64,000 nucleotides of DNA from Candidatus Omnitrophota bacterium (GTDB lineage: Bacteria; Omnitrophota; Gorgyraeia; Pluralincolimonadales; Pluralincolimonadaceae). The notes below the pieces were generated by a model. That model was given only the letters and a program-made list of their open reading frames with translations, was not told where the DNA came from and did no database searches. The position numbers and the translations under genes were made by a program. Where the stretch lies: positions 72,307 through 136,306 of the forward strand of contig PLNR01000009.1 in assembly GCA_003141835.1 (NCBI GenBank), read 5' to 3'. Shown here one piece after another: positions 405-45,645 of the stretch (positions are counted from its first letter, which is position 1; each line of letters opens with the position of its first letter).

Positions 405-2138
405 TCAAAGTATCGCGGACTGGGCTTCCTTAAGGACCTCTTCGGCCGAAGTGGCGCCCAGAAATATCTTCTCGATGCCGTCGCTAAGGAGGGTCTTCAT
501 TCCGGCCTCTATCGCGGCATCTCTTATAAGCGCAGTATGGGCTTTTTCTATGACCAAAGCCCTGATCTTGTCGTTAAGGACGAGAAGTTCGAATAAGCCC
601 GTCCTCCCCTTGTATCCGGAATTATTGCATTTTACGCATCCGGCTCCCCTGTAAAATTTCTTTCCCGCCGCCATTTCGGGTGTTATCCCCAGGTCGGATA
701 GCATCTCCGGCTCGGGTGTATATTCCTCCTTGCAGAACTCGCATATCTTCCTGACGAGGCGCTGCGCCAGTACGGCCTCGAGCGTCGAGGTCACGAGGAA
801 CGGCTCCACGCCCATATCTATAAGCCTGGTGATCGTGCCGGACGCGTCGTTGGTGTGTATGGTCGAGAAGACGAGATGCCCGGTCAACGAGGCCTGGATG
901 GCTATCTGGGCCGTCTCGGCGTCGCGGATCTCGCCGACCATGATTATATCCGGGTCCTGCCTCAAGATGTGGCGCAGCGACGACGCGAAGGTAAGGCCGA
1001 TCTTGGCGTTTATCGGCACCTGGATAACGCCCTTGAGGTCGTACTCGACCGGGTCCTCGGTCGTGATGACCTTATATTCTATCTTGTTTATCTCTTTCAT
1101 GCATCCATACAAGGTGGTCGTCTTTCCGCAGCCGGTCGGGCCGGTAGCGAGGATTATTCCGTTGGGCTTGATGATCAGGGTGCGTATCCTTTTCTTCGTA
1201 TCCTCGAGCATCCCGACATCATCGATGGAAAGGCTGACCACCGTCCTGTCGAGGACCCTCATGACGACGCTCTCGCCGAATATCGTAGGTAATGTCGAGA
1301 TCCTGAGGTCGACGCTCTTGCCTTCTATCGTGACCATGATGCGCCCGTCCTGGGGAAGCCTGCGTTCGGCTATGTCGAGGTTCGCCATGACCTTGATCCT
1401 GGATGAGAGTCCGAGACTTAAGTTCTTAGGAGGTCTTGCGACTTCATATAGGACTCCATCCACCCTGTACCTGATCCTGTAATCCTGCTCGAACGGCTCA
1501 AAATGTATGTCCGAGGCCTTCTCTTTCACGCCCTGCAGCAATATCATGTTCAACAATTTTATGACCGGGGCGCGGGAAGCGAGGTCCTGCAGTGTGGCGA
1601 TATCGGTCGACTCTTCGCCGGCCGGCAGGAGTTCCATCTTTTCGCCGAATACTCCAAGGACGTCCTGTATCGTCTCGCCCTCGCTGCCGTAATATTTCTG
1701 TATCTCCTCTTTTATCTCCTCATCGCTGGCTACGACGCCCTTGATGTTCATCCCGAGGGTAAACCGCAGGTCGTCGAAGGCTGCCACATTCAACGGATCG
1801 GCGATAGCGACGGTGAGCTGGTTCCCGTCAATGGCGACGGGAAGTATGCTATATATCTTGGCGACCGAGGCCGGGACCTTGTCGATCACTTCCTTCGGGA
1901 TCTTCACGCCCTTAAGCCTGGCTACCGAGAAGCCGGAGCGCGCGCCGAGGACCTGGAGGATATCGTCCTCTTTGACCAGGCCCATATCTATCATGATGCG
2001 GCCCAGGAGTTTACCGGTCAGTTTCTGTTCTTCGAGGGCCTGTTCCAGCTGATGGTCGTTTATAAGGCCTTTTTCAAGGAGGAGCTGGCCTACCTTCTTG
2101 TATTTATCCTGTTTAGGCGGTTCTTTTTCCGGGGCCAT
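405..2138 (-). CDS. pilB: GspE/PilB-family secretion ATPase, paralog 1. It has an N-terminal MshEN-like domain.
   Basis: 577 aa. Walker A GPTGCGKTTT. C-terminal tetracysteine motif CEFC...CVKC. N-terminal KVGQLLLEKGLINDHQLEQALEEQK matches the MshEN RLGxxLLxxGLIxxxQLxxALxxQ pattern. Confidence 0.9.
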   Translation of the reverse strand: MAPEKEPPKQDKYKKVGQLLLEKGLINDHQLEQALEEQKLTGKLLGRIMIDMGLVKEDDILQVLGARSGFSVARLKGVKIPKEVIDKVPASVAKIYSILPVAIDGNQLTVAIADPLNVAAFDDLRFTLGMNIKGVVASDEEIKEEIQKYYGSEGETIQDVLGVFGEKMELLPAGEESTDIATLQDLASRAPVIKLLNMILLQGVKEKASDIHFEPFEQDYRIRYRVDGVLYEVARPPKNLSLGLSSRIKVMANLDIAERRLPQDGRIMVTIEGKSVDLRISTLPTIFGESVVMRVLDRTVVSLSIDDVGMLEDTKKRIRTLIIKPNGIILATGPTGCGKTTTLYGCMKEINKIEYKVITTEDPVEYDLKGVIQVPINAKIGLTFASSLRHILRQDPDIIMVGEIRDAETAQIAIQASLTGHLVFSTIHTNDASGTITRLIDMGVEPFLVTSTLEAVLAQRLVRKICEFCKEEYTPEPEMLSDLGITPEMAAGKKFYRGAGCVKCNNSGYKGRTGLFELLVLNDKIRALVIEKAHTALIRDAAIEAGMKTLLSDGIEKIFLGATSAEEVLKEAQSAIL

Positions 2139-2139
2139 A

Positions 2140-3849
2140 TTATTCCTCGTAGCCGTGCGTTATGCGCACGACCTCAGATATCGTGGTGATCCCTTCCATG
2201 GCTTTCGAGAGGCCGTCCTCGCGCAGTAACTTCATGCCGTGCTTGCGTGCCGCATCGCGGATCTCGGGAGAAGGCAGCCTCTTTATGATCATCTCCCTTA
2301 TCTCGTCGGTGTTGAGGAGGAGTTCGAAGATCCCTATCCTGCCCCTGTATCCCGTATAATTGCAGTTCTTGCATCCGCGCCCGCGCCATAATTTTATCCC
2401 GGCCGCGGCAGGATCGCCCTGCTTATGGCCGAGCACATATAATTCCTCGAGGGTCGGTGGGTACTCTTCCTTGCAATTGTCGCAGATCTTGCGGACGAGC
2501 CGCTGCGCCATTACCGCCTGCACCGTCGAGCTGACCAGGTAAGATTTCACTCCCATGTCTATCAGGCGCGTAAAAGCGCCGGCAGCGTCGTTGGTATGGA
2601 GCGTGCTGAAGAGGAGATGCCCGGTCAGGGCCGCCTGTATCGCGATGGATGCCGTTTCGAAATCGCGGATCTCGCCGACCATTATGACGTCAGGCGCCTG
2701 CCTCAGCATCGTCCTGAGGCCCGAAGCAAAAGTCAGCCCGATCGAAGGCCTGACGTGCACCTGGTTTATCCCGGAGATCTGGTATTCGACCGGGTCCTCG
2801 ATAGTTATTAATTTTTTGTTCGGTTTATTGATATAGCTGAGCGAGGCGTATAATGTAGTGGTCTTGCCGCTTCCGGTCGGGCCGGTTATAAGCAACATCC
2901 CGTAAGGGAGATGTATCAGCCTTTCGAACGTATCCGCGTCCCCGTGGAGGAATCCCAATTCCTTAAGGCCGAGCATGAAGCTCGATTTGTCGAGGATCCT
3001 CATGACCACGCTCTCGCCGTATAATGCGGGGAGGGTCGACACACGGAGGTCGAGGTCCTTGCCCGCGCCCGAGATCCTGATCCTGCCGTCCTGCGGCAGC
3101 CTCTTCTCCGCAATATTCATACCGGCCATGATCTTCAGGCGGCTTATGATGGAAGGCTGCAGCTGTTTCGGCGGGCCCGGCACTTCGTGCAGGACGCCGT
3201 CGATCCTGTACCTTATGCGAAATTTGTCCTCGAGCGGCTCCACGTGGATATCCGAGGCGCGGTTCTTCACGGCCTCGGCAATTATCTGCGTGACGAGCTT
3301 TATTATAGGGGCTTCCTCTTTCTCCTCTTCCTTGGCGACCTCGCCGGCCGCTCCCTTGAAAGAGACCGCTATCTCCGAGTCCTTTTTCGACGCGACCGCG
3401 TCCAGGATATTCTTGCTGCCCCCGTAATGTTTTTCGAGCGCGATAGAGAGGTTGGTCTCCGAGGTCAGGACAAAATTTAATTTACATCCGGTCAAAGCTT
3501 CGAGGTTATCCTGGGCAAGGAGGTTTATAGGATCATCGGTGCCGACGGTAAGCACGTCGTTTTCGTATTTCAGGGGTATCATCCTGTGCCGGTAAGCGAT
3601 GTTCGGCTTTACTTTCTGGAGCACGTCGAACGGTATCTCCATATCGAAGATCGGGGAACGGGCGAGGGAGAATTCCTGGACGATGAGGTCCCTAAGCTGT
3701 TCTATTTTTAAGAAACCTATACCTGCGAGGATCTCGGAGAGGCGGCCGCCTGATTCGACCTGGGTCTTTAGGATGTTCTTAACCTGGGATTCTTCCAGGA
3801 TCCCTATAGACCTGACGTATTCGGCTATGAGCCTGCTTTTATTCAGCAA
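2140..3849 (-). CDS. pilB: GspE/PilB-family secretion ATPase, paralog 2.
   Basis: 569 aa. Walker A GPTGSGKTTT. CDNC...CKNC zinc motif. GSPII_E N-domain present, but its MshEN motif is degenerate. Confidence 0.9.
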   Translation of the reverse strand: MLNKSRLIAEYVRSIGILEESQVKNILKTQVESGGRLSEILAGIGFLKIEQLRDLIVQEFSLARSPIFDMEIPFDVLQKVKPNIAYRHRMIPLKYENDVLTVGTDDPINLLAQDNLEALTGCKLNFVLTSETNLSIALEKHYGGSKNILDAVASKKDSEIAVSFKGAAGEVAKEEEKEEAPIIKLVTQIIAEAVKNRASDIHVEPLEDKFRIRYRIDGVLHEVPGPPKQLQPSIISRLKIMAGMNIAEKRLPQDGRIRISGAGKDLDLRVSTLPALYGESVVMRILDKSSFMLGLKELGFLHGDADTFERLIHLPYGMLLITGPTGSGKTTTLYASLSYINKPNKKLITIEDPVEYQISGINQVHVRPSIGLTFASGLRTMLRQAPDVIMVGEIRDFETASIAIQAALTGHLLFSTLHTNDAAGAFTRLIDMGVKSYLVSSTVQAVMAQRLVRKICDNCKEEYPPTLEELYVLGHKQGDPAAAGIKLWRGRGCKNCNYTGYRGRIGIFELLLNTDEIREMIIKRLPSPEIRDAARKHGMKLLREDGLSKAMEGITTISEVVRITHGYEE

Positions 3850-5782: not shown

Positions 5783-5787
5783 GGTGC

Positions 5788-8422: not shown

Positions 8423-8427
8423 TATCC

Positions 8428-32074: not shown

Positions 32075-33928
32075 CTATTTATCCAGGTAACCCCTGTTCG
32101 TGCCGCTGAACCCTTCAGCCGGCGCTACCACTGTCGCTGCGGCGGGTTTCTCTGATTTTTTATCTTCCTTCTTGTTGTTCTTCTTATTATCCTTCTTCGC
32201 GGGCTCGGGAGCGGGAACGACATTGGCCTGTCCCGCCGCGAGGGCTGACTTGACCTGCGCGATCTCCTCTGCGGTAAGCTCTCCCGGCCTTATCACCCTC
32301 GCCGTTATGAATATAAGCAGGTCTATCTTGCTGGTTTCGTTCGTCGCGCGCGAGAAGAGGTTGCCGATTATGGGGATGTCGCCCAGTATCGGTATGCCTA
32401 TCCGCCCTTTAGATTTTACGTCTTTCAATAACCCGCCTATGACGATAGTCTCGCCGTCCGCCATCAGGACCTGCGTCTCGGCCTCCCTGGTCAGAAGTAT
32501 CGGGTATTCGTTAGTACCTTTCGTATTTGTGTAAGACGAGACGACAGGATGGACTATCATATTGACGAATTTCTCGTCGCCGCTCACCTGCGGGACGACG
32601 TAAAGTTGTATGCCGACATCCTGGTAATAAGCAAGGGTTGTCGTAGCCGTAGCCTGGGCGGTGCCCGAGATATTAGATTCGATGATAGGATATTTTTGCC
32701 CTACCAGAATAAGCGCTTCCTGCCCGGAGAGCGTCACCAGCTTCGGCGCCGAGAGCGTATTGGTCCTTACGTCTTCCTCAAGCGCGTGGAGCATCGCCTC
32801 CATCTGCGTCCCGAAGATCTTCGACCATAACAGCTGGAGTCCCGCGTTATACGGGTTCAGGCCCGTGGCGAGCGGGGTAAAATTAGAGGGCTTATAAGTG
32901 ACAACGCCGCCGTTGGCCGTTACCTCTGACTGCGAATAACTGCTTCCCGTTAACAGGCCTCTCGTATCGTTACTTCCGAATTTTGTGGGAACCGTGCCGA
33001 GCAGGGCCCCGTTTGCGTCCGTCAGGAGCTGGTGGCTCTGCAGCCTTGAACCGGTGCTCCACTCCATTCCCAGGTCCCTCAACAGATCTTTACTTACTTC
33101 CATTATCCTCGCCTCAATGAGGACCTGGACCGGTTTTAGATCTATATCTTTTAATATCTTAGTGATCCTGTCGAGATATGTCGGCGTATCGGTCACCACC
33201 AGCGAATGCGACCTGGCATTCTCCCTTTCCCTCCTGGTTTTGCCTTCTTCTGTCGTCGCGGTTCCGGCTGCCGAAGCGCCCACTTTCCACCCCTTCTGTC
33301 CGGTTATCTCAAGGACCGATATCTTTCCCTGGGGAGAGAGCTGCGGCTCGAGCACCTTCTTGGCGTCCGTGGCGTCGATATACTGCAAAGTGAAGACCTT
33401 GCTGGTGATGCCCTCTATCTCGGTCAATTCCCTCTTCTTCTCCCTGCGCTCTTTCAACCCATCCACAGTCGCTACGGTGATGATATTGCCCTGGCGCTCA
33501 TACGCAAACCCGTATGTGCTAAGTATGACGTCCAGCGCCTGCTCCCATGGTACGTCCACAAGCCGTATAGTGATCGTACCGACGACTTCTTTGCCCGCGA
33601 CGATATTTACACCGCTCTTGTAAGCCAGTACCCTTAGGACATTTTGTATATCGGCATCCTTAAAATCAAGGGTCACGGTGTTATTCTTGTCTTCTTCGGC
33701 CTTCGCTTGTTCCGGGGAGATCTCCTGGGGCGCGGCTTCAAACACGGGTTGCTGCGCGGCTACCGGTGCTGTCTCAACCGGAGGCGGCAAAGCTACCGGC
33801 TGCTCAACGGTAGTAGGCGGTACGGACTGCGATTCCTGCCCGTATGCGTGCCCGAAAAATAATGCTGCAATAAACAGGACGCCGATGACCGAGATCTTTG
33901 CGCGATTGGACATGTTATTCCTCCTCAC
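32075..33928 (-). CDS. pilQ: Type IV pilus secretin PilQ.
   Basis: C-terminal secretin domain (VVTDTPTYLDRI, IVIGGL...GIPILGDIPIIGNLF). Pro/Gln-rich N-terminus and Lys-rich C-terminal tail. The start could instead be the ATG at 33913. Confidence 0.9.
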   Translation of the reverse strand: MRRNNMSNRAKISVIGVLFIAALFFGHAYGQESQSVPPTTVEQPVALPPPVETAPVAAQQPVFEAAPQEISPEQAKAEEDKNNTVTLDFKDADIQNVLRVLAYKSGVNIVAGKEVVGTITIRLVDVPWEQALDVILSTYGFAYERQGNIITVATVDGLKERREKKRELTEIEGITSKVFTLQYIDATDAKKVLEPQLSPQGKISVLEITGQKGWKVGASAAGTATTEEGKTRRERENARSHSLVVTDTPTYLDRITKILKDIDLKPVQVLIEARIMEVSKDLLRDLGMEWSTGSRLQSHQLLTDANGALLGTVPTKFGSNDTRGLLTGSSYSQSEVTANGGVVTYKPSNFTPLATGLNPYNAGLQLLWSKIFGTQMEAMLHALEEDVRTNTLSAPKLVTLSGQEALILVGQKYPIIESNISGTAQATATTTLAYYQDVGIQLYVVPQVSGDEKFVNMIVHPVVSSYTNTKGTNEYPILLTREAETQVLMADGETIVIGGLLKDVKSKGRIGIPILGDIPIIGNLFSRATNETSKIDLLIFITARVIRPGELTAEEIAQVKSALAAGQANVVPAPEPAKKDNKKNNKKEDKKSEKPAAATVVAPAEGFSGTNRGYLDK

Positions 33929-34295
33929 CTCTCAAATTTATGACTGATTCTTCGCCGCCCCTGTCGAGGATCACCCTCGTCTTCTCTATAGTCTTGACCT
34001 TGTAATCTCCCAGTATATCTCCGGCCCTCACGACCGAGCCGCCGATGATAGCGTATGAATCCCCGCTCTTCGACCAGACTATCCCCTCGAGGTTCAGCTC
34101 TACATTAGCCGTCACCGGCCTCAACTCGGGAAGCAGGTTGCCGTCCCTGTCGATGAGCGGCCTGAACGGGTCGCGCTTGTTCTTTGCGTCATATTTAAAA
34201 TTCTCATCCCCGGGCGCGAACGGCGAGAACGCGATAAAGATCAAAAGTGACAATAATACCGCGGTCCTCATTTTAGTTGTAAACCGCGTCCTCAT
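33915..34295 (-). CDS. pilP: Pilus assembly protein PilP.
   Basis: 126 aa, signal/anchor, KRDPFRPL motif, sits between pilO and pilQ. Confidence 0.8.
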   Translation of the reverse strand: MRTRFTTKMRTAVLLSLLIFIAFSPFAPGDENFKYDAKNKRDPFRPLIDRDGNLLPELRPVTANVELNLEGIVWSKSGDSYAIIGGSVVRAGDILGDYKVKTIEKTRVILDRGGEESVINLRGEEE

Positions 34296-34942
34296 TTTGA
34301 TTGTGTCTCCTCGCGCAGGACATATACCACTATCAGGAATCTCGCACTGTGGTTCTGTATGTCGTCAGGGTTGGCCTTTATGTCGAAATCGCCGACCGAC
34401 ATTATATTATCGGAGGTCTCAACGCCGTTTATGAACTCGCCTAACGCATGATAACTTCCCCTGACCTCGACCGTTACGGGTAGCTCCGTATAGATAGCGG
34501 CCGGCTTCTTAGCCTCGGTCTTAGCCCCGGGTTTCGCCGCCGGGACTGCTTTGACTACCTTAGCAGCTTCGGGCGGTTTCTGTACCGGTTCTATCTTTAT
34601 TATCTTGACCTTATTCCCGTAGGCGATCTCCGCGATCTTCTGCAGGATGTTAGGCATCTCGCGGTTCGGCGGCAGCGCTTTTTCATATTCCTTGAGTTTC
34701 CCCTGGACCGAGGCGAGGCGCGCCTCAAGCCGCGACTTGCTCGCTATGAGCGCCCGGTCTTTTTTCAGGGTTTCGCTTTCCTTTATGATCTCTTTCTTGA
34801 GTTCGCCTAACTTCCGGAAGGAAGGGATCATCGCGAACTGTATCAGGCTCAACGCTATTATGAAGCCGGCTATCCCTATCAGCACCACCTTCTCCAGGTC
34901 GGCCTTCGGCATTTTCGACATGAAATTAGAGAGTCCGGACAT
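34292..34942 (-). CDS. pilO: Pilus assembly protein PilO.
   Basis: TM helix plus coiled coil, then a PilO C-terminal domain. Positioned between pilN and pilP. Confidence 0.8.
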   Translation of the reverse strand: MSGLSNFMSKMPKADLEKVVLIGIAGFIIALSLIQFAMIPSFRKLGELKKEIIKESETLKKDRALIASKSRLEARLASVQGKLKEYEKALPPNREMPNILQKIAEIAYGNKVKIIKIEPVQKPPEAAKVVKAVPAAKPGAKTEAKKPAAIYTELPVTVEVRGSYHALGEFINGVETSDNIMSVGDFDIKANPDDIQNHSARFLIVVYVLREETQSK

Positions 34943-35563: not shown

Positions 35564-36490
35564 CTACCTTCTTATCGCGAGCCCGACGCAAACGGCCAAT
35601 TGGCCGGAGGCGTCCTTAAGGGCCTGCGGATCCACTTTAACGGAAACCGTGAGGTTTTTTACCGGGTCCCAGGCCGAGACCTCGAACCCGAAAGCCTGCG
35701 AGAAGCGCTGCAGCAGCGCCGTGTCTTTCGCGCCGCCGCCGCTGACGTATATCCCGTCTATACCCTTGCCGAACTGGTTCTCATAATAGTCGAACGAGAG
35801 CCTGACCTGGTTCTCGAGCGTATCCGCGTTCTTTACATCCACCGGGATATCGCGGGTAAAATTGAGCGTCTCGTTCTTGAGTATGCAGACGTTGGTCATG
35901 CTCGCGCCGATATTCAAAAGGGCGAGCGTCTTGTCCTTGCCCAACCCGGGATTGTTGAATATGAATGCGTTCGTCACGGCGATGGCGTCGCAGTCGATAG
36001 CCCCGGCCTCTAATCCCGCTTCGTTTATATATCCGAGATATTCGTCCACGAGATCTTTTTTCGAAGCCACGATGAGGACCTTCATCTTATTGCCTTCGGC
36101 GTTCTGGTCGATCACCTGGGCGTCTATATAGACCTCATTTATGTTGAACGGGATATGTTTTTCGGCCTCGAATTGCAAAGCGGATTTTAATTCGCCCTCG
36201 CTCATCTTCGGGAAGAGCACTTGGCGGACAACGACCCCCTGCCCGGATACGGACATCGTTACGTTTTGGACCTTCGTCTCCGATGAGGAGATCGCCTGCT
36301 TTATCGCCCCGACGACCTTTTCTTTCGTCTTTTCTCCCTCGATCGCCCGGACGGCGAAAAAATCGAGCTGGAACGCGCCGGCCTTTTGCCGCGACAGCGC
36401 CAATACCTTCACGGAAGAAGTGCCGATGTCGATCCCGACCTTGACCTTCGTCCTGTTAAAATTCAAAAACGGGAACTTTATCTCTTTCAT
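35564..36490 (-). CDS. pilM: Pilus assembly protein PilM (actin-like).
   Basis: VGIDIGTSSVKVLAL... Confidence 0.9.
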   Translation of the reverse strand: MKEIKFPFLNFNRTKVKVGIDIGTSSVKVLALSRQKAGAFQLDFFAVRAIEGEKTKEKVVGAIKQAISSSETKVQNVTMSVSGQGVVVRQVLFPKMSEGELKSALQFEAEKHIPFNINEVYIDAQVIDQNAEGNKMKVLIVASKKDLVDEYLGYINEAGLEAGAIDCDAIAVTNAFIFNNPGLGKDKTLALLNIGASMTNVCILKNETLNFTRDIPVDVKNADTLENQVRLSFDYYENQFGKGIDGIYVSGGGAKDTALLQRFSQAFGFEVSAWDPVKNLTVSVKVDPQALKDASGQLAVCVGLAIRR

Positions 36491-37086: not shown

Positions 37087-37106
37087 TTTAATTGGAGGGA
37101 TGCGAG

Positions 37107-37586
37107 ATGCGGTACAATCCGCTTAAACGCGGTTTTACTCTGATGGAAGTGATGTTCGCGGCCGGGATAATGCTCATCGCCATAGGCGGACTTTTGGGGG
37201 GATACGTTCTCTGTTTTAACCTGAGCGAGACGGCAAAGAACTTGACCTTAGCCGATAACGCTATCCAGCAGAAACTTGAAGAGATACACTACCAGATGCT
37301 CGAAACAACCACTTATTATGATAATACTACATTCGATATTCCGGGTTTCGCGCCTGGGAATGCCAAAGGCGCGATCTACGTAGACGCCATTCCCAATAGC
37401 ACGGACCTCAAAAGAGTGACTATCTCCGTCTCCTGGCGGCAAAAAAGCGGAAGGATAATCGGGTCGGATAACGGCAGCGGCGGCGGGATGGCGCTTAACG
37501 GGATACGCGACGGTACGGAGCAGGTGGACGCGAACGGTTGCCTGACATCTCCGGCGATGATCTCAGAGGTGGTGACGGACAGATGA
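37107..37586 (+). CDS. Minor pilin/pseudopilin with a prepilin-type N-terminal methylation domain (PilV-like).
   Basis: MRYNPLKRG then FTLMEVMFAAGIMLIAIGGL. The ORF-track start at 37092 is a TTG inside the Shine-Dalgarno. Confidence 0.8.
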   Translation: MRYNPLKRGFTLMEVMFAAGIMLIAIGGLLGGYVLCFNLSETAKNLTLADNAIQQKLEEIHYQMLETTTYYDNTTFDIPGFAPGNAKGAIYVDAIPNSTDLKRVTISVSWRQKSGRIIGSDNGSGGGMALNGIRDGTEQVDANGCLTSPAMISEVVTDR

Positions 37587-38182
37587 ACGCAAGATCTCGC
37601 AAAGGATTAAGCCTGGTTGAATTGATGGTAACCATAGGCATAATGGTTATAGTCGGGGGGATCCTGGCGCGTTTCCTTGTTATAGGAGGCGCGGCATGGC
37701 ATTCCGGGGACGCCGCTATACAGGCAGCCCAGGAAGCAAGAAAAGGCATAATGTACATGACAAGGGAATTACGGCAGGCCAATTTAGCCTCCCTGGCTAA
37801 TACGGCAGGCGCGAAATACGCGCAACATCCAAATACCGACTATAACTCCGTCGTCTTCCGGGTCGTGACCGTCTTTGCCGGTAACAATAATTACGGCGCC
37901 TACGGTTCCGTGATGACTAATGCCGGCGTGCCGAACTTGTCCGCTCCTATCTCTTATTACATAAATAACAACCAGCTGATAAGGCTCAAGGACAATGTCA
38001 CCAAAGTGCTTGCGAACAATGTGACCGGACTGGCGTTCCGCCTGCAAAAAGATTCTTATACGCTGAATGGCCAGGAATGCGCGGTCACGACTCTCTTGAT
38101 AACGCTGCAGACATCGAAGACCACTGCAGAGAGAAGGCAAATCCCGATGACTTTAACCAGCGCCGTCTTATTGAGGAACTAA
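37583..38182 (+). CDS. Minor pilin/pseudopilin (PilW-like).
   Basis: MNARSRKG then LSLVELMVTIGIMVIVGGIL. ATGA overlap with the upstream gene. Confidence 0.8.
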   Translation: MNARSRKGLSLVELMVTIGIMVIVGGILARFLVIGGAAWHSGDAAIQAAQEARKGIMYMTRELRQANLASLANTAGAKYAQHPNTDYNSVVFRVVTVFAGNNNYGAYGSVMTNAGVPNLSAPISYYINNNQLIRLKDNVTKVLANNVTGLAFRLQKDSYTLNGQECAVTTLLITLQTSKTTAERRQIPMTLTSAVLLRN

Positions 38183-38185
38183 AAA

Positions 38186-39508
38186 ATGGGACACAAAAAA
38201 GGGTTTATGCTGATCGTGGCTTACTCGGTAGTCGCTGTCATCCTTATCCTTGTCGCCGCTTATGTCTCCCGCAGCGTAGCCGAGGTGAGGATAGCACAAA
38301 GGGAAAAAAATTCCTTAGCGGCGCTTAAAGCGGCGGAATCAGGGATAGACTACGGCTTTGCGTGGCTGAGCCTCCAGCCTGCCCCGCCTGCAGGCGTGAC
38401 CCCTATAGTAAACCCCACGATAACCGGGGTACCGAAACCTGCCCTGACAACCGGGGCATACTCGGTAACGATCATCCCGAACGCCAGCAATCCGACAAAC
38501 TGGCCGAAAAAATACGAAATAGTGGCTGTCGGGACGTCCGGGGACTCGACCCGCACCGTATATTACGAGGTCCAGCGCGATACCTTTGCCAAGAATATCT
38601 GGTTCACGAATACCGAGAGTTACGGCGGGACGAACGTGTGGTTCGTAACGGCTGACTCGCTGGACGGCCCGGTACATACTAACGACAGCTTCAACATCTC
38701 CGGGAACCCGTCTTTCCCCGACCTGATAGATCCGCATCCGACCGAACAGTGCGGTCCGGACATAAATTACATGCACCCGGGCGTGGATAATCCGTATTTT
38801 GCCCAGCCGGTTGATTTCAACGTCGATCCTATAGTGATGCCCGGTCATGAACGTACGGAACCCCTTCGCACCGCAGCCGCGTCCGGCGGCCGCGTCTTTG
38901 CGGGAAGCACTACGATAATTTTGAACGCCGACGGCACGATGAACGTGACGAACGCGACCGGTGGTTACAATAATACCAATATGCCCATACCGGCGAACGG
39001 GGCCATATACGTCCAGAACAGGGTACAGGGGAACCACATCGCCGAATACGGCGATGTCAACGTACGAGGGACGTTGAACGGCCGCCTCACTATAGGGGCA
39101 AACGATGACGTGACTATCACGGGAAATGTCCTGTACAACAACAATCCCCAGACGAACCCAAACTCGACCGACACGCTGGGGCTCGTAGCCGAGGGGGATG
39201 TCATCATCTCGCAAAACGCGTGCCCGAACGGCGCCAATTCAAACCTTACGATCCAGGCGGCCGTAATGGCCATGGCGGATTCGTTCTACCTGGATAATTG
39301 GACCTCAACGATGAAAGGCATCTTGAACGTATACGGCGGGATAACCCAGAACCAGCGGGGGCCTGTCGGGACTTTCAATACGAATAATAACAGCAAGGCA
39401 AGCGGTTTTTCAAAAAATTATCTCTACGACAGGAGGCTGCGCGACGCGCCGCCCCCTTATTATCCGGATACTAATAGATATGAAGGGGCAGCCTGGAGGG
39501 ATCAATGA
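38186..39508 (+). CDS. PilX-like large minor-pilin / pilus tip-associated protein.
   Basis: N-terminus MGHKKGFMLIVAYSVVAVILILVAAYVSRSV is PilX_N-like and lacks Glu at +5. 440 aa, with an Asn/Thr/Gly-rich predicted beta-rich region. Confidence 0.65.
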   Translation: MGHKKGFMLIVAYSVVAVILILVAAYVSRSVAEVRIAQREKNSLAALKAAESGIDYGFAWLSLQPAPPAGVTPIVNPTITGVPKPALTTGAYSVTIIPNASNPTNWPKKYEIVAVGTSGDSTRTVYYEVQRDTFAKNIWFTNTESYGGTNVWFVTADSLDGPVHTNDSFNISGNPSFPDLIDPHPTEQCGPDINYMHPGVDNPYFAQPVDFNVDPIVMPGHERTEPLRTAAASGGRVFAGSTTIILNADGTMNVTNATGGYNNTNMPIPANGAIYVQNRVQGNHIAEYGDVNVRGTLNGRLTIGANDDVTITGNVLYNNNPQTNPNSTDTLGLVAEGDVIISQNACPNGANSNLTIQAAVMAMADSFYLDNWTSTMKGILNVYGGITQNQRGPVGTFNTNNNSKASGFSKNYLYDRRLRDAPPPYYPDTNRYEGAAWRDQ

Positions 39509-39930
39509 AGATATCAAAAACTCAAATAGCCATAATAATATGTTTATGCATCCTCGCGGTAATAATCATCCTCTCGCTCGGCAGGCCACAATCAAAACCT
39601 GCCGCGACGGCGGGACCTGAAGCCAGGCCGGAAGAACAAGCGCTCCCGCAGGCCGGGAAATATGAATTGCCGCCGCAGGAGAATGCCGGATATCCGGCTT
39701 CGCAACCCGTGAACACTCAGTCCGCGAAACCGGCATCGACGCCTTCGGCGTCGACAACACCCGGGACTTTATCTGAAAATACGCAAAGTCCCAATAACAG
39801 CTCGAACGGCGGGATATTGAATCCGGAGCAAGTTTACGAACCGTCGCCTGACCTGCCGCAAAAACCGCCTAAGCTGCCGCCTCCGGAAAAAATGCAGGAG
39901 ATGCAAAGAAGGGGCATAGTGGCGTTCTGA
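39505..39930 (+). CDS. Small membrane-anchored Pro/Ser/Thr-rich protein, last gene of the minor-pilin operon.
   Basis: TM helix IAIIICLCILAVIIILSL, then a low-complexity P/S/T/Q-rich tail. Overlaps the upstream gene by 4 nt. Confidence 0.5.
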   Translation: MKISKTQIAIIICLCILAVIIILSLGRPQSKPAATAGPEARPEEQALPQAGKYELPPQENAGYPASQPVNTQSAKPASTPSASTTPGTLSENTQSPNNSSNGGILNPEQVYEPSPDLPQKPPKLPPPEKMQEMQRRGIVAF

Positions 39931-39946: not shown

Positions 39947-40381
39947 CTATTCTACCGGGACGCCTGACGCGTCGTCTATCCTTATCACCCCGGACTCATC
40001 CACAAAGAAGATCCTGATGCCGGTGATGTTGGGAGTTATCGGGGTCGCCGTGCAGGTGTACTGGTTCGGGCCCACAAAAGTGTAATTGAAATTATATCCC
40101 TGCTTCGCTCCCCCACCCAGGGTAGGATCTATATATGGCGGGTTTTCAGTGCTTAATGTCACAAGGTCCGGAGGGTATGTGGGCGGGTTCTGCATGCTGC
40201 GGTAACTCTCGCAGCCGGTGCTTATCGTCCTCATCGAGCCTATCGCCGACGATTCATTCGCGATGACCCTCGCCCGCAGGAAACCGGGTATCGCGATGAC
40301 CGCGAGCGTGACAAGTATGGCCACGACGATCATTATCTCGACAAGCGTAAAACCTTTCCTGCGGTCCTGGCCCTTACACAT
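39947..40381 (-). CDS. pilA: Type IVa major pilin, paralog 3.
   Basis: MCKGQDRRKG then FTLVEIMIVVAILVTLAVIAIP. C-terminal Cys pair CESY...YTCTATP. The ORF-track start at 40417 is a TTG lying inside a -35 box. Confidence 0.85.
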   Translation of the reverse strand: MCKGQDRRKGFTLVEIMIVVAILVTLAVIAIPGFLRARVIANESSAIGSMRTISTGCESYRSMQNPPTYPPDLVTLSTENPPYIDPTLGGGAKQGYNFNYTFVGPNQYTCTATPITPNITGIRIFFVDESGVIRIDDASGVPVE

Positions 40382-40389
40382 GCTATTTA

Positions 40390-40417
40390 ATCTATAACCA
40401 AAACATAAAAATGTCAA
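40390..40417 (-). promoter_or_regulatory. Putative sigma70 promoter (TTGACA-16-ATAGAT) for pilin paralog 3. It implies a leaderless mRNA.
   Basis: The -10 element ends about 9 nt before the ATG at 40381 and there is no Shine-Dalgarno. Confidence 0.3.
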
Positions 40418-40444
40418 CCCTTCGTTTCGCGCAGGGCAGGCATA

Positions 40445-40480
40445 ACAAAAAGGCGAGGACTTTACTCCTCGCCTTTTCGC
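40445..40480 (-). terminator. Intrinsic terminator after pilin paralog 2.
   Basis: GGCGAGGA-cttta-TCCTCGCC is a perfect 8-bp stem. It is flanked by an A-tract and a T-tract (minus-strand RNA ...GGCGAGGAguaaagUCCUCGCCuuuuuguu). Confidence 0.7.
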
Positions 40481-40499
40481 ATACTTTACGCCCTGAGCG

Positions 40500-40931: not shown

Positions 40932-40982
40932 TTTCTTTCCCCTCCTTTCTTCCTAGATTGGGACTTCCTTACTTTCAACTAA

Positions 40983-41010
40983 AGTATAACATAAAAGTTA
41001 TCTCTGTCAA
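40983..41010 (-). promoter_or_regulatory. Sigma70 promoter (TTGACA-16-TATACT) for pilin paralog 2.
   Basis: Read directly from the sequence. It lies in the pilC-pilin intergenic region. Confidence 0.5.
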
Positions 41011-41015
41011 GCGTT

Positions 41016-42227
41016 CTATTTGCCGACGACCTGGATCAGCTTCACTATCGGCAGGAACATCGATACGACGATGCCGCCTACCACGATCCCGAGGAAAGCG
41101 ATTATAAGCGGCTCTATCAGGCTCGTCAACCCGGATACGGCCGCGTCGACTTCGCTCTCGTAAAAATCGGCGACCTTCCCGAGCATCTCCTCGAGCTTGC
41201 CTGTCTGCTCCCCCACCGAGATCATCCTCGTTACCATCGGCGGGAAGACCTTGCTTGCTGTCAGCGGCTGCGCTATCGACTCGCCTTCCTTGATGCTCAT
41301 CTTGGTCTTCAGGACCGCCGCCTCTATTACCCTGTTGCCCGAGGTCTTTCCCACTATTTCAAGCGCCGTCAATATCGAAACGCCGCTCTTCTGTAACGTC
41401 GAAAGCGTGCGCGCGAACCTCGCGATGGCCACCTTCCTTAATAACGGCCCGATAACGGGTATCTTCAACAAGAAAGTGTCGAAGGCAAGCCTTCCCTTAT
41501 CCGTCTTTATGACCTGCGAAAGCGATATGGAACCTATCACCAATCCTATAATAACGAAAAGCAGGTAGCCCCTCACGATATGGGAGATCTTTATCAGTAT
41601 AAGCGTAGGCAGAGGCAGTGTTACGCCGATGGTGGCGAATATGCTCTCGAACGTCGGGACTACTTTGACTATCAGGAAAGTCGTGATAAGGATCGCCATC
41701 GTAACAACGACCGCCGGATATATGAGGCTCGATTTTACTTTCCTTATCAGGGCGATCGTCTTTTCCATGTAGATGGCGACCCTGTCGAGGATCTCATCAA
41801 GGTTGCCGCTCGACTCGCCTGCCCTGACCATGTTTATGAAGAAAGGAGAAAATACATTCGGCTGTTTGCCCAGCGCCTCGGAGAGGCTCAGCCCTCCCTC
41901 GACATTATCGCGGACCCTCTTTACGACGTTCTTGAAACCCTTGCTCTCCATCTGATCCTGGAGCGCGTCAAGGGCGCCGACGAGCGGTATGCCGGCGTCG
42001 ACCATCGTGGCGAGCTGCCTGGAGAAGACGACCAGGTCATCCATTTTTACCTTCCCGCCGCCTCCGAAGGACAGCCCCTTGGCCGTTTCCTTCGCCTCGC
42101 TCAGCGAAATTATCACGTATTCCTTCTGCCTGAGCATGTCTACCAGGGCGATGCTGCTGGGCGCTTCCATGGTGCCGGATATCGTCCTGCCGTCCTTATC
42201 CTTCGCGGTATATTTGAATTGGGGCAC
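41016..42227 (-). CDS. pilC: Type IV pilus platform protein PilC (GspF family).
   Basis: MPQFKYTAKDKDGRTISGTMEAPS, two T2SSF domains, three TM helices. Confidence 0.9.
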   Translation of the reverse strand: MPQFKYTAKDKDGRTISGTMEAPSSIALVDMLRQKEYVIISLSEAKETAKGLSFGGGGKVKMDDLVVFSRQLATMVDAGIPLVGALDALQDQMESKGFKNVVKRVRDNVEGGLSLSEALGKQPNVFSPFFINMVRAGESSGNLDEILDRVAIYMEKTIALIRKVKSSLIYPAVVVTMAILITTFLIVKVVPTFESIFATIGVTLPLPTLILIKISHIVRGYLLFVIIGLVIGSISLSQVIKTDKGRLAFDTFLLKIPVIGPLLRKVAIARFARTLSTLQKSGVSILTALEIVGKTSGNRVIEAAVLKTKMSIKEGESIAQPLTASKVFPPMVTRMISVGEQTGKLEEMLGKVADFYESEVDAAVSGLTSLIEPLIIAFLGIVVGGIVVSMFLPIVKLIQVVGK

Positions 42228-42228
42228 T

Positions 42229-43938
42229 TTATTCCTCCGACGTTACCCTTAAGACTTCCTCTATGGTGGTATGGCCCAAAGCCAGGTTCTCGAGCGCGGC
42301 CGCGCGCAGGGTGAGCATCCCCTTCTCTTTCACGCAATATTCTTTTATCTTATCGCTCTGCACCCTGTCAAGTATCATCTCTTTTATCTTGTCGTCTACG
42401 GTGAGGTTCTCGAGGATGGCGAACCTGCCGTAATACCCCGTATTATTGCATTTGGCGCACCCTTTTCCCTTAAAGAAGGCCGCTTTCTCCTTTTCCTTAT
42501 ATCCTATTTTGTCCAGTATCTCCTTTGGGATGACGATCTTCTCTTTGCAATTCGCGCATACCCTCTTCATCAACCTCTGCGCGCATATAAATACCACGCT
42601 GGACGCTACCAAAAACGGCTCGACGCCCATGTCTATAAGCCTTGTTATGGCGCTCGGCGCGTCGTTCGTGTGCAGGGTCGAAAGGAGTAATTGTCCGGTG
42701 AGCGACGCCTTGATAGCTATATCCGCGGTCTCGAAATCGCGGATCTCGCCGACCATGACGATATCCGGCGCCTGGCGCAGGAAAGCGCGCAGGCCGCCCG
42801 CAAAGGTAAGGCCTATCTCCGGCTTGACCTGAACCTGGGTTATCCCCATGAGCTCGTATTCGATCGGGTCCTCTATCGTGACGATATTCTTTTCCGGCGT
42901 ATTCAATATATTAAGGATGGAATAAAGGGTCGTGGACTTGCCGCTCCCGGTCGGCCCGGTCACAAGGAACATCCCGTAAGGCCTGGAGATCGCCTCCCTT
43001 AATTCCTCCAGGGTCTTGGGGAGGAAGCCGAGTTTTTCCGGGGAAACTTTAATGCTCGATTTATCGAGGACCCTCAGGACGACCTTCTCGCCGTGGACCA
43101 GAGGCAGGGTTGAAACGCGGAAATCTATCTCCCTCTCCTCCATCCTCACCTTGAACCTGCCGTCCTGCGGGAGGCGCCATTCGGTGATATCCATGTCCGA
43201 CATTATCTTGATCCTGGTAAGCACCGCGTTCTGGTTCGATTTCGGCAGGTGCGAGAATTCCGTAAGCGCGCCGTCGATACGGTAGCGTATGCGCAAGTCT
43301 GTCTCCATGGGTTCCACATGGATGTCGGAGGCGCGGCGTTTGAGCGCCTCGCTTATTATGACGTCGACCATCTTGAGTATCGGCGCCTTCTGGCTCTCTA
43401 TGGCCAGCGTGGAAACATCGAACCGTTCCGCATCCCCGGTCTGGAGGAGTTCCAGTTCGTCGTCCTTGACGTCTTTTACTATCTTATCTATGGAAAGCGT
43501 CTCTTCCCCGTAATAGGCCGCGATCGAGGCGATGATATCCTTATCCGTAGCTATGACCGGGTCTATCTCGTATTTAGTCAGGATCTTCAGGTCATCGAGG
43601 GCGAATATGTCGAGCGGATCGGACATGGCCACGGTCATGCGGTTGCCGATCTTCGAAACCGGGATAAGATGGTAAAGGCGCGCGATCTTCACTGGGACAA
43701 GGGAGATGATCTCCTTGTCTATCTTGTATTTCGCCAGGTTTATCGGAGTTATGTTGAGTTCCTGGCTGAATATCGATAAAAGCTCGTTCTCATTGACGAG
43801 CCCCTTCTGCACAAGGATCTTGCTCAGGCTGCCGCCCTTCTCTTTCTGGGTCTTTATGGCCTCGTCCAGTTTCTCCCTGGATATGGAGCCTTTATTCACC
43901 AGGACTTCGGCTAATTTATCTCTTATGCTCTGTGCCAT
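42229..43938 (-). CDS. pilB: GspE/PilB-family pilus assembly ATPase, paralog 3, with an MshEN-type N-domain.
   Basis: Walker A GPTGSGKSTT. CANC...CAKC. N-terminal KLAEVLVNKGSISREKLDEAIKTQKE is an MshEN motif. Confidence 0.9.
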   Translation of the reverse strand: MAQSIRDKLAEVLVNKGSISREKLDEAIKTQKEKGGSLSKILVQKGLVNENELLSIFSQELNITPINLAKYKIDKEIISLVPVKIARLYHLIPVSKIGNRMTVAMSDPLDIFALDDLKILTKYEIDPVIATDKDIIASIAAYYGEETLSIDKIVKDVKDDELELLQTGDAERFDVSTLAIESQKAPILKMVDVIISEALKRRASDIHVEPMETDLRIRYRIDGALTEFSHLPKSNQNAVLTRIKIMSDMDITEWRLPQDGRFKVRMEEREIDFRVSTLPLVHGEKVVLRVLDKSSIKVSPEKLGFLPKTLEELREAISRPYGMFLVTGPTGSGKSTTLYSILNILNTPEKNIVTIEDPIEYELMGITQVQVKPEIGLTFAGGLRAFLRQAPDIVMVGEIRDFETADIAIKASLTGQLLLSTLHTNDAPSAITRLIDMGVEPFLVASSVVFICAQRLMKRVCANCKEKIVIPKEILDKIGYKEKEKAAFFKGKGCAKCNNTGYYGRFAILENLTVDDKIKEMILDRVQSDKIKEYCVKEKGMLTLRAAALENLALGHTTIEEVLRVTSEE

Positions 43939-43941
43939 AAT

Positions 43942-45645
43942 TTAATCCTGCTCCCCGAGGGTCACGCGCACCACCTCTTCAAGGGTCGTGGTCCCGTCAA
44001 AAACCTTCCTCAAGCCGCTCTCCCTTAAAGTCACGAGTCCGGCCCTGCGCGCCGCTTCGTAGACGACGGACTCGTGCGCCCTCTTGGCTATAAGCTCCCT
44101 CAGCTCCGGGTTTATAGCTACCGCCTCTATAAGGCCTATCCTTCCCCTGAAGCCGGTCTTGAAACAATGGTCGCAGCCTTTGCCCTTGTAGAACTTCACG
44201 TTCTCAGGCGCCTTTATCTTAAGTTTTTCGAGCAATGACTTGTGTATTTCCTGGACCTCTTTGCAGCGCGGGCAGATCTTCCTGACAAGCCGCTGGGCAG
44301 CTACAAGGACCACCGAAGAACTGATAAGGAACGGCTCGACTCCCATATTCATCAGCCTCATTATGACGCCGGTCGCCGTGTTGGTATGCAGCGTGCTGAG
44401 CACGAGGTGCCCGGTCAGCGCGGCTTTTATCGCGATGTCGACGGTCTCCAGGTCCCTTATCTCGCCGACCATTATGACGTTAGGATCCTGCCGCAGTATG
44501 GAGCGCAGCGTCGCCGCGTACGTCAACCCGATATTTGTATTTATATTGACCTGGTTTATCCCCGGCAGCAGGTATTCGACGGGATCTTCTACGGTGACGA
44601 AATTCTTTTCCGGCGCGTCTATATGCTTGATGACCGAATACAGGGTCGTCGTCTTCCCTGAACCTGCAGGGCCGCAGACGAGTATCATACCGTGGGGCCT
44701 CCTCGAGGCCTTCTTTAATTCATCGAGGGGTTCCTTCTCGAACCCCAGCCTGTCGACATCGAGCATGGCCTGGGACCTGTCGAGGATCCTGAGCGCTACC
44801 TTTTCGCCGAACGCGGTCGGGACGGTCGAGACCCTGAAGTCGACCTCCCTCTCCTGCACCTTTATCTTGAACCTTCCGTCCTGGGGCAGGCGCCGCTCGG
44901 CGATATTGAGGTTCGACATGACCTTGATCCTGGATATTATGCCCGACTGTATCGTCCTCGGCAGCGATTGCGCCTCCCTGAATATCCCGTCGATCTTATA
45001 CCTGATGCGCAGGTGGTCTTCCATCGGTTCTATGAGGATATCGCTCGCCCTCGCTTTCGTCGCTTCCAGGACTATAGCGCTAGTGAGTTTTACAACCGGC
45101 GTATCGGCTACCGCGCCCAGCACCTCGATCGACTCATCTTCCGGTCTCCTGGAAGAGATGAGCTCTATGTTAGTCTCTTTTACCAGCGCTTCGATGGTCG
45201 AGGTCGCCGCGGTCCCGTAATGCTGGTCTATCGCGGCCTTGACGTCGTCCTGCGTGGTTATGATAGGCGTGATGTCCATGCCGGTGACGTTCTTTATGTC
45301 GTCAAGGGCGAAGACATTAAGCGGGTCTGCCATCGCGACGGTGAGGATGTTGCCCATCTTCGATATAGGCATGATCTGGTAATTGACGGCTATCTTTTTC
45401 GGGATGAACTTGGTTATTTCCGGGTCTATCTTGAACTTGGAAAGGGATATCGGCGGGATGCCGAGTTCCTGGCTTACGATCGCAAGTAATTCCCTCTGCG
45501 TTATCGCGCCCAGGGAGACAAGGATATCTCCCAGCGAACCGCCCTTCTCTTTCTGGGCTTGAAGGGCCTGGTTCAATTTCTCTTCGGTGATCGCCCCTTT
45601 TTTTAACAGTATCTCGCTTAGCCGTTCCTTGATCCCAGATGGCAT
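43942..45645 (-). CDS. pilB: GspE/PilB-family pilus assembly ATPase, paralog 4, with an MshEN-type N-domain.
   Basis: GPAGSGKTTT. CPRC...CDHC. N-terminal RLSEILLKKGAITEEKLNQALQAQKE. Confidence 0.9.
   Translation of the reverse strand: MPSGIKERLSEILLKKGAITEEKLNQALQAQKEKGGSLGDILVSLGAITQRELLAIVSQELGIPPISLSKFKIDPEITKFIPKKIAVNYQIMPISKMGNILTVAMADPLNVFALDDIKNVTGMDITPIITTQDDVKAAIDQHYGTAATSTIEALVKETNIELISSRRPEDESIEVLGAVADTPVVKLTSAIVLEATKARASDILIEPMEDHLRIRYKIDGIFREAQSLPRTIQSGIISRIKVMSNLNIAERRLPQDGRFKIKVQEREVDFRVSTVPTAFGEKVALRILDRSQAMLDVDRLGFEKEPLDELKKASRRPHGMILVCGPAGSGKTTTLYSVIKHIDAPEKNFVTVEDPVEYLLPGINQVNINTNIGLTYAATLRSILRQDPNVIMVGEIRDLETVDIAIKAALTGHLVLSTLHTNTATGVIMRLMNMGVEPFLISSSVVLVAAQRLVRKICPRCKEVQEIHKSLLEKLKIKAPENVKFYKGKGCDHCFKTGFRGRIGLIEAVAINPELRELIAKRAHESVVYEAARRAGLVTLRESGLRKVFDGTTTLEEVVRVTLGEQD

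Follow-up and report, generated by a model that had tools for sequence, protein, structure and literature searches.

Mechanistic models of pilus extension describe the motor ATPase PilB as a C2-symmetric homohexamer whose identical subunits cycle through three states. In the PilB ring, T411 touches the next packing unit and lies between H413 and H420, the latter of which binds the gamma-phosphate (PMC5424180); the corresponding residue of PilT, T221, works in trans from the neighbouring packing unit (PMC6858323). Here we describe four PilB-like ATPase genes in a 64,000-nucleotide stretch of DNA (the window) that comes from a 443-kb contig of a metagenome-assembled genome (MAG) of Candidatus Omnitrophota, deposited as an ENA metagenome assembly. 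The genes form two adjacent pairs, each followed by a single gene for a PilC/GspF platform protein, and the members of each pair differ at residues that are invariant among other PilB proteins, in a pattern suggesting that the two may act as partners in one motor. Residues are numbered as in PilB of G. metallireducens (GmPilB) by alignment to its PDB entry, in which 20 is subtracted from the chain index to obtain the residue number. The four genes, whose types include their orthologs in other genomes, are as follows.

405-2138, minus strand: paralog 1 (par1-type), 577 amino acids, the downstream ATPase of module 1, adjoining GspF, with an intact cyclic di-GMP (c-di-GMP) motif
2140-3849, minus strand: paralog 2 (par2-type), 569 amino acids, the upstream ATPase of module 1, with D387A, E437K and a degenerate c-di-GMP motif
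42229-43938, minus strand: paralog 3 (par3-type), 569 amino acids, the PilC-proximal ATPase of module 2, with H413Q (Q416), D387A and T332S
43942-45645, minus strand: paralog 4 (par4-type), 567 amino acids, the upstream ATPase of module 2, with H203L (ASDIL) and D423T (HTNT), and with H413 and D387 kept

All four proteins match the Pfam families MshEN (PF05157, 51-79 bits, at the N-terminal MshEN/N1D domain) and T2SSE (PF00437, 448-473 bits, E = 1e-134 to 1e-142). Their top match among solved structures is Geobacter PilB (486-559 bits, approximately 50% identity), with Vibrio GspE scoring lower (383-434 bits). Each has the core of the PilB/GspE clade, namely Walker A, the Asp box, an atypical Walker B together with the catalytic Glu, the two Arg fingers and a CxxC...CxxC motif; paralog 3 carries Gln at the first His-box position and retains H420. 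The last of these motifs, a C-terminal tetracysteine that binds zinc and is specific to this clade (PMC5424180), is present in four of four paralogs and in nearly all of their orthologs. The NCBIfam equivalog model for PilB (TIGR02538, cutoff 675.65) is missed by paralogs 1 to 4 with 626, 630, 654 and 642 bits, and we classify all four, on these scores, as PilB-like proteins that fall outside the curated PilB equivalog. Against the GspE equivalog (TIGR02533, cutoff 630.25), paralog 1 passes with 641 bits, and paralogs 2, 3 and 4 fall below with 623, 594 and 586.

Much of a preliminary description made from the window alone withstood this analysis. The four PilB/GspE-type open reading frames (ORFs), all on the minus strand, their arrangement in two pilB-pilB-pilC modules, and the presence of Walker A and the four-cysteine zinc motif in every copy were each borne out. 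Its fragment at positions 349 to 1, read as a PilC N-terminus, is that of a GspF/PilC protein whose complete gene on the source contig encodes 422 amino acids. A tblastn search of the window returned exactly four PilB-like genes, one PilT and one complete PilC, together with the N-terminal part of another platform protein; the statement that there is a single PilT thus holds, but for the 64-kb window only. Paralogs 3 and 4 are indeed closest to each other (50% identity, every other pair being 42-45%). The reported degeneracy of the paralog 2 N-domain applies to its c-di-GMP motif (21 bits with NF053729, cutoff 38), but the domain as such still matches MshEN (51 bits). Three features are additional to that description: a gene for a stand-alone MshEN domain at 45662-46108, the replacement of the first His of the paralog 3 His box by Gln (TGQLLLSTLHTN), and ASDIL in paralog 4 where ASDIH is invariant.

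The clades were compared at alignment columns whose conservation among 121-129 other PilBs is at least 85-90%. Five positions in module 2 and its orthologs are listed below.

H203 (of ASDIH): Leu or Phe in 33 of 33 par4-type proteins, His in 35 of 35 par3-type proteins, His in 100% of other PilBs
H413: His in 33 of 33 par4-type proteins; Gln in 32, Glu in 1 and His in 2 par3-type proteins; His in 100% of other PilBs
D387 (two residues before Walker B): Asp in 33 of 33 par4-type proteins, never Asp in 35 of 35 par3-type proteins (Ser, Ala, Asn or Thr), Asp in 100% of other PilBs
D423: Thr in 31 of 33 par4-type proteins, Asp in 34 of 35 par3-type proteins, Asp in 94-95% of other PilBs
T332 (Walker A): Thr in 31 of 33 par4-type proteins, Ser in 33 of 35 par3-type proteins, Thr in 96% of other PilBs

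The residues with established roles in catalysis are untouched, as R271 and R286 (the Arg fingers), E357 (Mg-binding), E395 (catalytic) and H420 (gamma-phosphate) are 100% conserved in both par3-type and par4-type proteins. An asymmetry of the same kind is found in module 1, where 126 par2-type orthologs carry D387A (94%) and E437K (96%) and the par1-type partner is canonical; paralog 1 itself has every family-invariant residue (signature HTDHHD). Among the nearest representatives at 50% identity, Gln413 is confined to sequences with the par3-type signature. Given that a basal lineage (L041) has His413 in both copies, H413Q arose after the duplication. We considered whether the Gln in the His box of paralog 3 marks a disabling lesion or a pseudogene and rejected this, because Gln is present in 32 of 35 orthologs, the ratio of nonsynonymous to synonymous substitution rates (dN/dS) is 0.05 and the catalytic residues are intact. 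A supposed loss of an Arg finger in par3-type proteins was likewise rejected: the variable first Arg of RLPQDGR corresponds to R251 of GmPilB, and R271 and R286 are intact everywhere. R257 is kept in 34 of the 35 par3-type sequences.

The pairing itself is also conserved. A scan with paralog 4, in which each species was represented by one genome and taxon labels are the submitters' own, found the nearest relatives in Candidatus Omnitrophota MAGs, the closest at 95% identity; some close ones are labelled Planctomycetia. The order MshEN-only gene, par4-type, par3-type, PilC is present in 35 of 35 Omnitrophota-type loci, which range from 95% to 44% identity to paralog 4, and in each of these the upstream PilB best matches paralog 4 and the downstream PilB best matches paralog 3. 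The MshEN-only gene lies upstream of the pair in every locus that reaches far enough, and the Acidobacteriota and other loci from the same scan have one PilB each. For module 1, the succession of par2-type, par1-type, GspF and GspG genes recurs in metagenomes at approximately 85% identity (L082, L083) and approximately 54% (L085), and the pair with its flanking synteny is retained at 85%, 69%, 57% and 55% identity. A protein search with paralog 2 gave at least 120 relatives among the matches listed, from 100% to 53% identity and mostly from Omnitrophota. Positional orthologs of both module 1 ATPases are found in L162, L163 and L164, and those of paralog 1 in L082, L083 and L085 as well.

Within each pair the two genes lie nearly end to end. 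Paralogs 2 and 1 are separated by one base, with a Shine-Dalgarno-like GAGGA inside the 3' end of paralog 2, and paralogs 4 and 3 by three nucleotides; Shine-Dalgarno-like sequences lie inside the upstream gene at the pair junctions. The pairs are accordingly predicted to be translationally coupled, with one platform gene per module. At 43939-43944, paralogs 4 and 3 share one frame and are split only by TAA-ATT, such that read-through of the stop would give a fusion of 1137 amino acids, similar to the double-PilB proteins described below. This in-frame junction is probably coincidental, since the spacing is not kept in orthologs, where the gaps are 4-10 nucleotides.

The age of the pairs was assessed with a neighbour-joining tree of 196 PilBs (556 columns, 100 bootstraps), a sample biased by the manner of its retrieval. 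Bootstrap values are 94 for the par3-type clade, 60 for the par4-type clade, 100 for the par1 group and 99 for the par2 group. The branching order of the par3-type subtree matches that of the par4-type subtree, in keeping with joint inheritance after a single old duplication. Sisterhood of the par1 and par2 groups is recovered in just 12 of 100 bootstraps, and we therefore rejected the idea that the module 1 pair is a tandem duplicate. Measured against the closest relative, paralogs 3 and 4 have dN/dS values of 0.048 and 0.066, PilT has 0.030 and the MshEN-only gene 0.010; the comparison with L082, where dS is saturated, gives 0.084 and 0.066 for paralogs 2 and 1. The four paralogs (0.05-0.08) are similar to PilT and PilC in this ratio.

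A parallel to the pairs was found in proteins that carry two PilB units in one chain. An exhaustive search of representatives with paralog 3 gave 17,552 (clustered at 50% identity) at E < 1e-30, and fusions were sought among the 149 best. Fourteen of these are approximately 1000 amino acids long and have one N-terminal domain followed by two complete PilB ATPase units, and two T2SSE matches are present in the gene calls of fusion proteins (L165:5187-8225, L166:6001-9144).

Double-PilB fusion proteins: P0121, P0124, P0126, P0127, P0133, P0134, P0141, P0150, P0152, P0154, P0163, P0171, P0176 and P0257

Unit 1 has Asp387 in 14 of 14 fusions, and unit 2 has Asn or Ala at this position in 10 of 14; H203 is also missing in two copies of unit 2. 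Identity of the units to each of the Omnitrophota clades is 38-41%, with unit 2 being the more divergent, and because they are equidistant from all clades, and no nearer to those of Omnitrophota than to other PilBs, the fusions arose independently of the Omnitrophota pairs. Their descent from an Omnitrophota pair was rejected on the same grounds. Since a single chain places both units in one assembly, these proteins give a hint of the Rosetta-stone type that paired units share a ring and that one of them sheds D387. Among single-unit PilBs that are without D387, three were checked, and two of these adjoin a PilB that has the residue: L169 has the order PilB(D387), PilB(S387), PilT, PilC, and L168 has PilB(S387), PilT, PilB(D387). 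Tandem PilB-PilB genes also occur sporadically in unrelated metagenome contigs (L130:112-3737, L169:3207-6647), in the arrangement PilB-PilB-PilT with or without PilC, and this distribution suggests that pairing of PilB originated more than once. The fusion P0124 has domains resembling T2SSF (the cytoplasmic domains of PilC) at its N-terminus and a Lys-to-Thr change in the Walker A of unit 1, and the fusions of L165 and L166 have no pilus genes nearby.

With these findings in mind, we judge the chances to be about even that each pair consists of obligate, subfunctionalised partners within a single extension motor, which would most probably be a mixed hexamer; the shared ring and shared platform are what we infer from the sequences. 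In such a machine, one PilC/GspF platform would be served by an ancient, co-inherited and translationally coupled pair of PilB-family proteins, both of which retain all residues with a known part in ATP binding and hydrolysis. Asp387 is absent from one member of each pair, which in module 2 also lacks H413, a residue that helps to position the trans-acting T411 at the interface of neighbouring subunits, and the module 2 partner lacks a different invariant pair, H203 and D423. A mixed hexamer would then have two classes of active site or interface, and if the ring alternates, one packing-unit interface would present the ancestral set of H203, D387 and H413 and the other would be remodelled. The more specific proposal, that an obligate heterohexameric PilB motor (for example, an alternating A3B3 ring) extends the pili and pseudopili of Omnitrophota and that the fusions found elsewhere are its covalent version, is one that we put forward tentatively and with somewhat less than even confidence.

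The main rival to a mixed hexamer is a pair of cooperating homohexamers that alternate on one platform, with a primary extension motor and an accessory counterpart (an 'extension-side PilU') that contributes force, speed or gear. The best-studied paralogous pair of the family, PilT and PilU, cooperates in this manner and forms separate homohexamers (PMC6821130), and each PilB copy described here has all catalytic residues and its own N1D/MshEN domain and could thus be a self-sufficient ring. Nevertheless, all stand-alone PilBs sampled have residues that one or the other copy is missing (H203, or D387 and H413), and such losses are easier to tolerate if a partner supplies the residue. The covalent fusions with the same D387 asymmetry, moreover, must hold both units in one assembly. 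We consider separate rings a possible but doubtful explanation, and it is these two observations, namely the lack of residues that no stand-alone PilB lacks and the same asymmetry in covalent fusions, that lead us to favour the mixed hexamer. An unlikely explanation is that the par3-type or par2-type protein serves chiefly as a scaffold or in regulation. It would then be an ATPase that is slowed or does not cycle, and would gate the true motor when c-di-GMP or another signal is received. H413Q, the changes at D387 and T332S do cluster around nucleotide and interface motifs, MshEN-only and degenerate GGDEF proteins are conserved in the operon, and the c-di-GMP motif of paralog 2 is degenerate, but the variant copies show 100% conservation of the Walker A Lys, E395, E357, the two Arg fingers and H420, and pseudo-enzymes usually lose some of those residues. 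Slightly less probable still is that each ATPase of a module serves its own type of pilin or filament. PilC is followed by two major-pilin-like genes in the window, as in most related loci, but several pair loci have only one (for example, L009 and L025), each module has a single PilC, and in established motor models of the type IVa pilus PilB acts through PilC and not on pilins directly (PMC5424180). An untouched catalytic set, the single PilC and the action of PilB through PilC therefore make both a regulatory pseudo-motor and pilin-specific motors less likely than partnership in one motor.

We give almost no weight to the view that the copies are redundant recent tandem duplicates or that one of them is a decaying pseudogene. 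Adjacent paralogs of equal length might give this impression, but identity within pairs is 45-50%, orthologs are found phylum-wide, dN/dS is approximately 0.05 and all frames are intact. On this evidence, recent duplication and pseudogenisation are excluded. The preliminary description had regarded none of the four as an obvious pseudogene, a view that the intact frames, the low dN/dS and the retained catalytic residues uphold, and had named two findings that would undermine its interpretation. Neither applies: the pairs are ancient, with positional orthologs across the phylum, and are not recent tandem duplicates, and the His-box change in paralog 3 is conserved throughout its clade under purifying selection, and is not a disabling substitution. 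Its two suggested explanations for the duplicated motors fared unequally. The notion of distinct filaments fits the difference between the modules, one a type IVa pilus cluster and the other a pseudopilin cassette, but leaves the two ATPases within each module unexplained. Heteromeric PilB assembly gains support from phylum-wide co-inheritance, from the reciprocal loss of invariant residues and from the parallel asymmetry of the fusions, although physical co-assembly is a deduction from these patterns.

Several observations weigh against a mixed hexamer or fit it imperfectly, in addition to the precedent of PilT and PilU. The sisterhood of the par3-type and par4-type clades has a bootstrap of only 48% in a neighbour-joining tree whose sample is retrieval-biased and whose deep nodes are weak. 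Asp387 is present in both units of four of the 14 fusions, the D387-less protein P0194, encoded on a contig of 3.8 kb (L167), is without a neighbouring partner there, and the rule that a PilB without D387 has a partner with it was checked on few cases and has exceptions. In addition, neither McCallum 2017 nor McCallum 2019 gives a role for H203 or D387.

If the pairs do form mixed rings, they would constitute a second, previously unrecognised architecture for the extension motor of a type IV filament. They would also provide a natural experiment on which of the interfaces, and of the residues H203, D387, H413 and D423, carry communication between subunits, and could show whether the rotary cycle tolerates or exploits a built-in asymmetry. 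The double-PilB proteins of approximately 1000 amino acids are an unannotated class that we flag here. We found no description in the literature of tandem or heteromeric PilB, Omnitrophota pilus motors, the ASDIH motif or double-PilB fusions, although coverage was incomplete and absence is not proof. Omnitrophota are small cells that are suspected to be host-dependent or predatory, and the pilus together with the pseudopilus cassette and its giant PA14- or GspK-like proteins are likely contact organelles.

The genes that surround the module 2 pair are listed below in the order in which they would be transcribed from the minus strand, with a divergent operon interposed.

47199-48647, minus strand: membrane protein with a degenerate GGDEF domain (SGDTF), TIGR00254 GGDEF 99 bits, first gene of the likely operon
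46115-47182, minus strand: PilT retraction ATPase, TIGR01420 479 bits (cutoff 319) and tblastn, the sole PilT of the window
45662-46108, minus strand: stand-alone MshEN-domain protein of 148 amino acids, Pfam MshEN 75 bits, between PilT and paralog 4
41016-42227, minus strand: PilC platform protein, two Pfam T2SSF matches (218 bits), NCBIfam PilC 420 bits
40500-40931 and 39947-40417, minus strand: two tandem major-pilin-like genes, N_methyl / IV_pilin_GFxxxE
37092-39930, plus strand: divergent operon encoding four proteins, putatively minor pilins or tip proteins, with N_methyl matched by the first two ORFs and DUF4900 by an ORF of 440 amino acids
36494-36952, minus strand: prepilin-type protein, N_methyl motif and tblastn similarity to PilA1
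35564-36490, minus strand: PilM, Pfam PilM_2 168 bits
34946-35563, minus strand: ORF in the position of PilN, no family match and named by position only
34292-34942, minus strand: PilO, Pfam PilO 64 bits
33915-34295, minus strand: ORF in the position of PilP, no family match and named by position only
32075-33928, minus strand: PilQ-type secretin, Pfam Secretin 150 bits, with STN and Secretin_N

The minus-strand order thus runs from the degenerate-GGDEF protein through PilT, the MshEN-only protein, paralog 4, paralog 3 and PilC to the two pilins, beyond which lie the divergent four-gene minor-pilin operon and then the genes for the prepilin, PilM, the PilN-position ORF, PilO, the PilP-position ORF and the secretin. 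Intergenic gaps in module 2 are 1-16 nucleotides, and promoter-like sites are found at 48700-48672, ahead of the GGDEF gene, and at 41010-40983, ahead of pilA. The two major-pilin-like genes share 63% identity across their C-terminal part. Module 2 is a complete type IVa pilus cluster, with family matches for PilT, PilC, PilM, PilO, the secretin and N_methyl pilins and with ORFs that match no family in the places of PilN and PilP. Directly upstream of the pilus operon, at 48707-55566 on the minus strand, are a TIGR03960 B12-binding radical SAM gene and the cell-shape genes rodA, pbp2, mreD, mreC and mreB. Homologues of module 2 in six lineages (L016, L018, L022, L023, L026, L063) are without PilT between the GGDEF-like and MshEN-only genes. 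In four lineages a second MshEN-only gene, divergent and 35-42% identical to the first, is present between the par3-type PilB and PilC (L023:14160-14618, L026:13539-14000, L055:13862-14326, L063:14148-14609).

The MshEN domains were also compared with the c-di-GMP motif. The MshEN motif is defined as two 24-residue stretches of the form RLGxxL(L/V/I)xxG(L/V/I/F)(L/V/I)xxxxLxxxLxxQ joined by a 5-residue linker, and the corresponding NF053729 model is passed by paralogs 1, 3 and 4 (48-62 bits) and by the MshEN-only protein (60.5 bits). Lys or some other residue frequently replaces the key Arg of the motif. Throughout their clades, the two PilBs of module 2 no longer have Gly3 of the first RLG motif, and the stand-alone protein has K-x-(L/I)-G...Q in 35 of 35 orthologs. 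Its gene is the most constrained of the operon, being 99% identical to that of the closest MAG, versus 93-97% for its neighbours. We speculate that c-di-GMP sensing may have been delegated to this small protein. The GGDEF membrane protein has SGDTF in place of GG(D/E)EF and TEVD in place of the RxxD I-site, and so lacks the motif of diguanylate cyclases. The GG[DE]EF motif is absent from this protein and from 19 of 19 orthologs, each of which is degenerate in a different way. Local synthesis of c-di-GMP by the upstream GGDEF gene was rejected for this reason, and the protein that heads the pilus operon is, by its motifs, a conserved non-cyclase.

Module 1 continues past the start of the window, and its platform gene is represented within the window only in part.

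1-349, minus strand: N-terminal part of the platform protein (GspF/PilC) of module 1, a fragment that scores 73 bits with NCBIfam GspF, the gene extending past the window start

The full gene (L001:11790-13058) encodes 422 amino acids and scores 406 bits against the GspF cutoff of 424. Past paralogs 2 and 1, the source contig encodes, in addition to this GspF, a T2SSG-type pseudopilin (GspG 63 bits versus a cutoff of 89), more prepilin-like proteins, with weak J/K-like matches, and very large GspK-like proteins that have PA14 or beta-helix domains. We classify module 1, from these matches, as a cassette of GspF, GspG and minor pseudopilins that resembles a type II secretion system (T2SS). GspC, GspD, GspL and GspM were not seen in L001, L162, L163 or L164 within the sequence fetched (21.7 kb available at module 1). 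Because module 2 is a type IVa cluster and module 1 a GspF/GspG/pseudopilin cassette, the two modules are different filament systems. Beyond window position 1 are three large proteins of 990 amino acids with PA14 (L001:14654-17626), 557 amino acids with a beta-helix (L001:17642-19315) and more than 769 amino acids (L001:19428-21734), all with prepilin or GspK-like N-termini and weak matches to the Verru_Chthon cassette. We regard these as candidate tip adhesins or secreted substrates.

The preliminary description had also remarked on the placement of module 1 among housekeeping genes as unusual for a pilus module. This impression is an artefact of the window edge, given that the module runs on into pseudopilin genes and that its synteny is conserved, and we rejected an odd insertion site accordingly. 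In three of three loci inspected (L162, L163, L164), the upstream synteny of gatB, ctpB, deacetylase, tsaD, mgtC, bactofilin and helix-turn-helix genes is retained. Of the three, L162 alone has both larB and larC ahead of the pair; in L164 larB is present without larC, and in L163 PHO4 and PhoU genes take their place. The two most divergent of the three (57% and 55%) have an extra PilT-like gene between the ATPases that is 45-46% identical to the PilT of the window. Comparison of these contexts indicates that the housekeeping location is conserved synteny and that the lineage of the window has lost a PilT from module 1. PilT-like ATPases of approximately 355 amino acids are encoded at L163:9726-10793, L164:9742-10806, L089:1201-2286 and L168:3658-4728, and it is unusual for a T2SS-like operon to contain a retraction-type ATPase. 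Between the two modules (12-32 kb) lie ordinary housekeeping genes, namely gatCA, mfd, argS, proAB, RNase G and a gene for a macro-domain protein.

When compared with described systems, the proteins of both modules are closest in architecture to the PilB proteins of Geobacter (5TSG/5TSH/5ZFR/6OLJ) and Myxococcus (3JC8), with which they share the MshEN/N1D domain, the N2D domain and a C-terminal domain with the zinc tetracysteine, and the module 2 operon likewise has PilT, PilC, PilM to PilQ and pilins. They differ in that known PilBs are single-gene homohexamers, whereas here two conserved paralogs are present per machine, and in that these lack H203 and D423, or D387 and H413, which are invariant in known PilBs. 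PilT and PilU resemble the pairs as two side-by-side paralogs of the PilT-like family that cooperate on one pilus machine. However, they act on the retraction side as separate homohexamers (PMC6821130), and the pairs described here are PilB-type proteins with N1D and zinc motifs and reciprocal losses.

Module 1 is similar to the T2SS, whose ATPase GspE is represented by Vibrio EpsE (1P9R/4KSR/4PHT), in having the GspE-scoring paralog 1 and GspF-like, T2SSG-type and J/K-like proteins. Unlike the T2SS, it has a second PilB-type ATPase and giant GspK-like proteins with PA14 or beta-helix domains, and its deeper lineages carry in the operon a PilT-like ATPase that classical systems lack. Five N-terminal domains in the window match the MshEN family of V. 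cholerae MshE (5HTL) and four pass NF053729, but one of the five is a free-standing protein of 148 amino acids and the module 2 PilBs are without Gly3. The proteins downstream of module 1 also show weak N-terminal matches to the Verru_Chthon cassette (TIGR02596-02600; cassette proteins A and C) and to cyanobacterial HpsC, although the scores are 25-31 bits versus cutoffs of 256-332 and the likeness is limited to the prepilin-like N-termini.

The F1 alpha3beta3 and V1 A3B3 rings are built from paralogs that are mutually dependent and have diverged asymmetrically at nucleotide and interface residues, with one subunit having lost catalysis. The proposed mixed PilB hexamers would be unlike these rings in the last respect, as both PilB copies keep every known catalytic residue.

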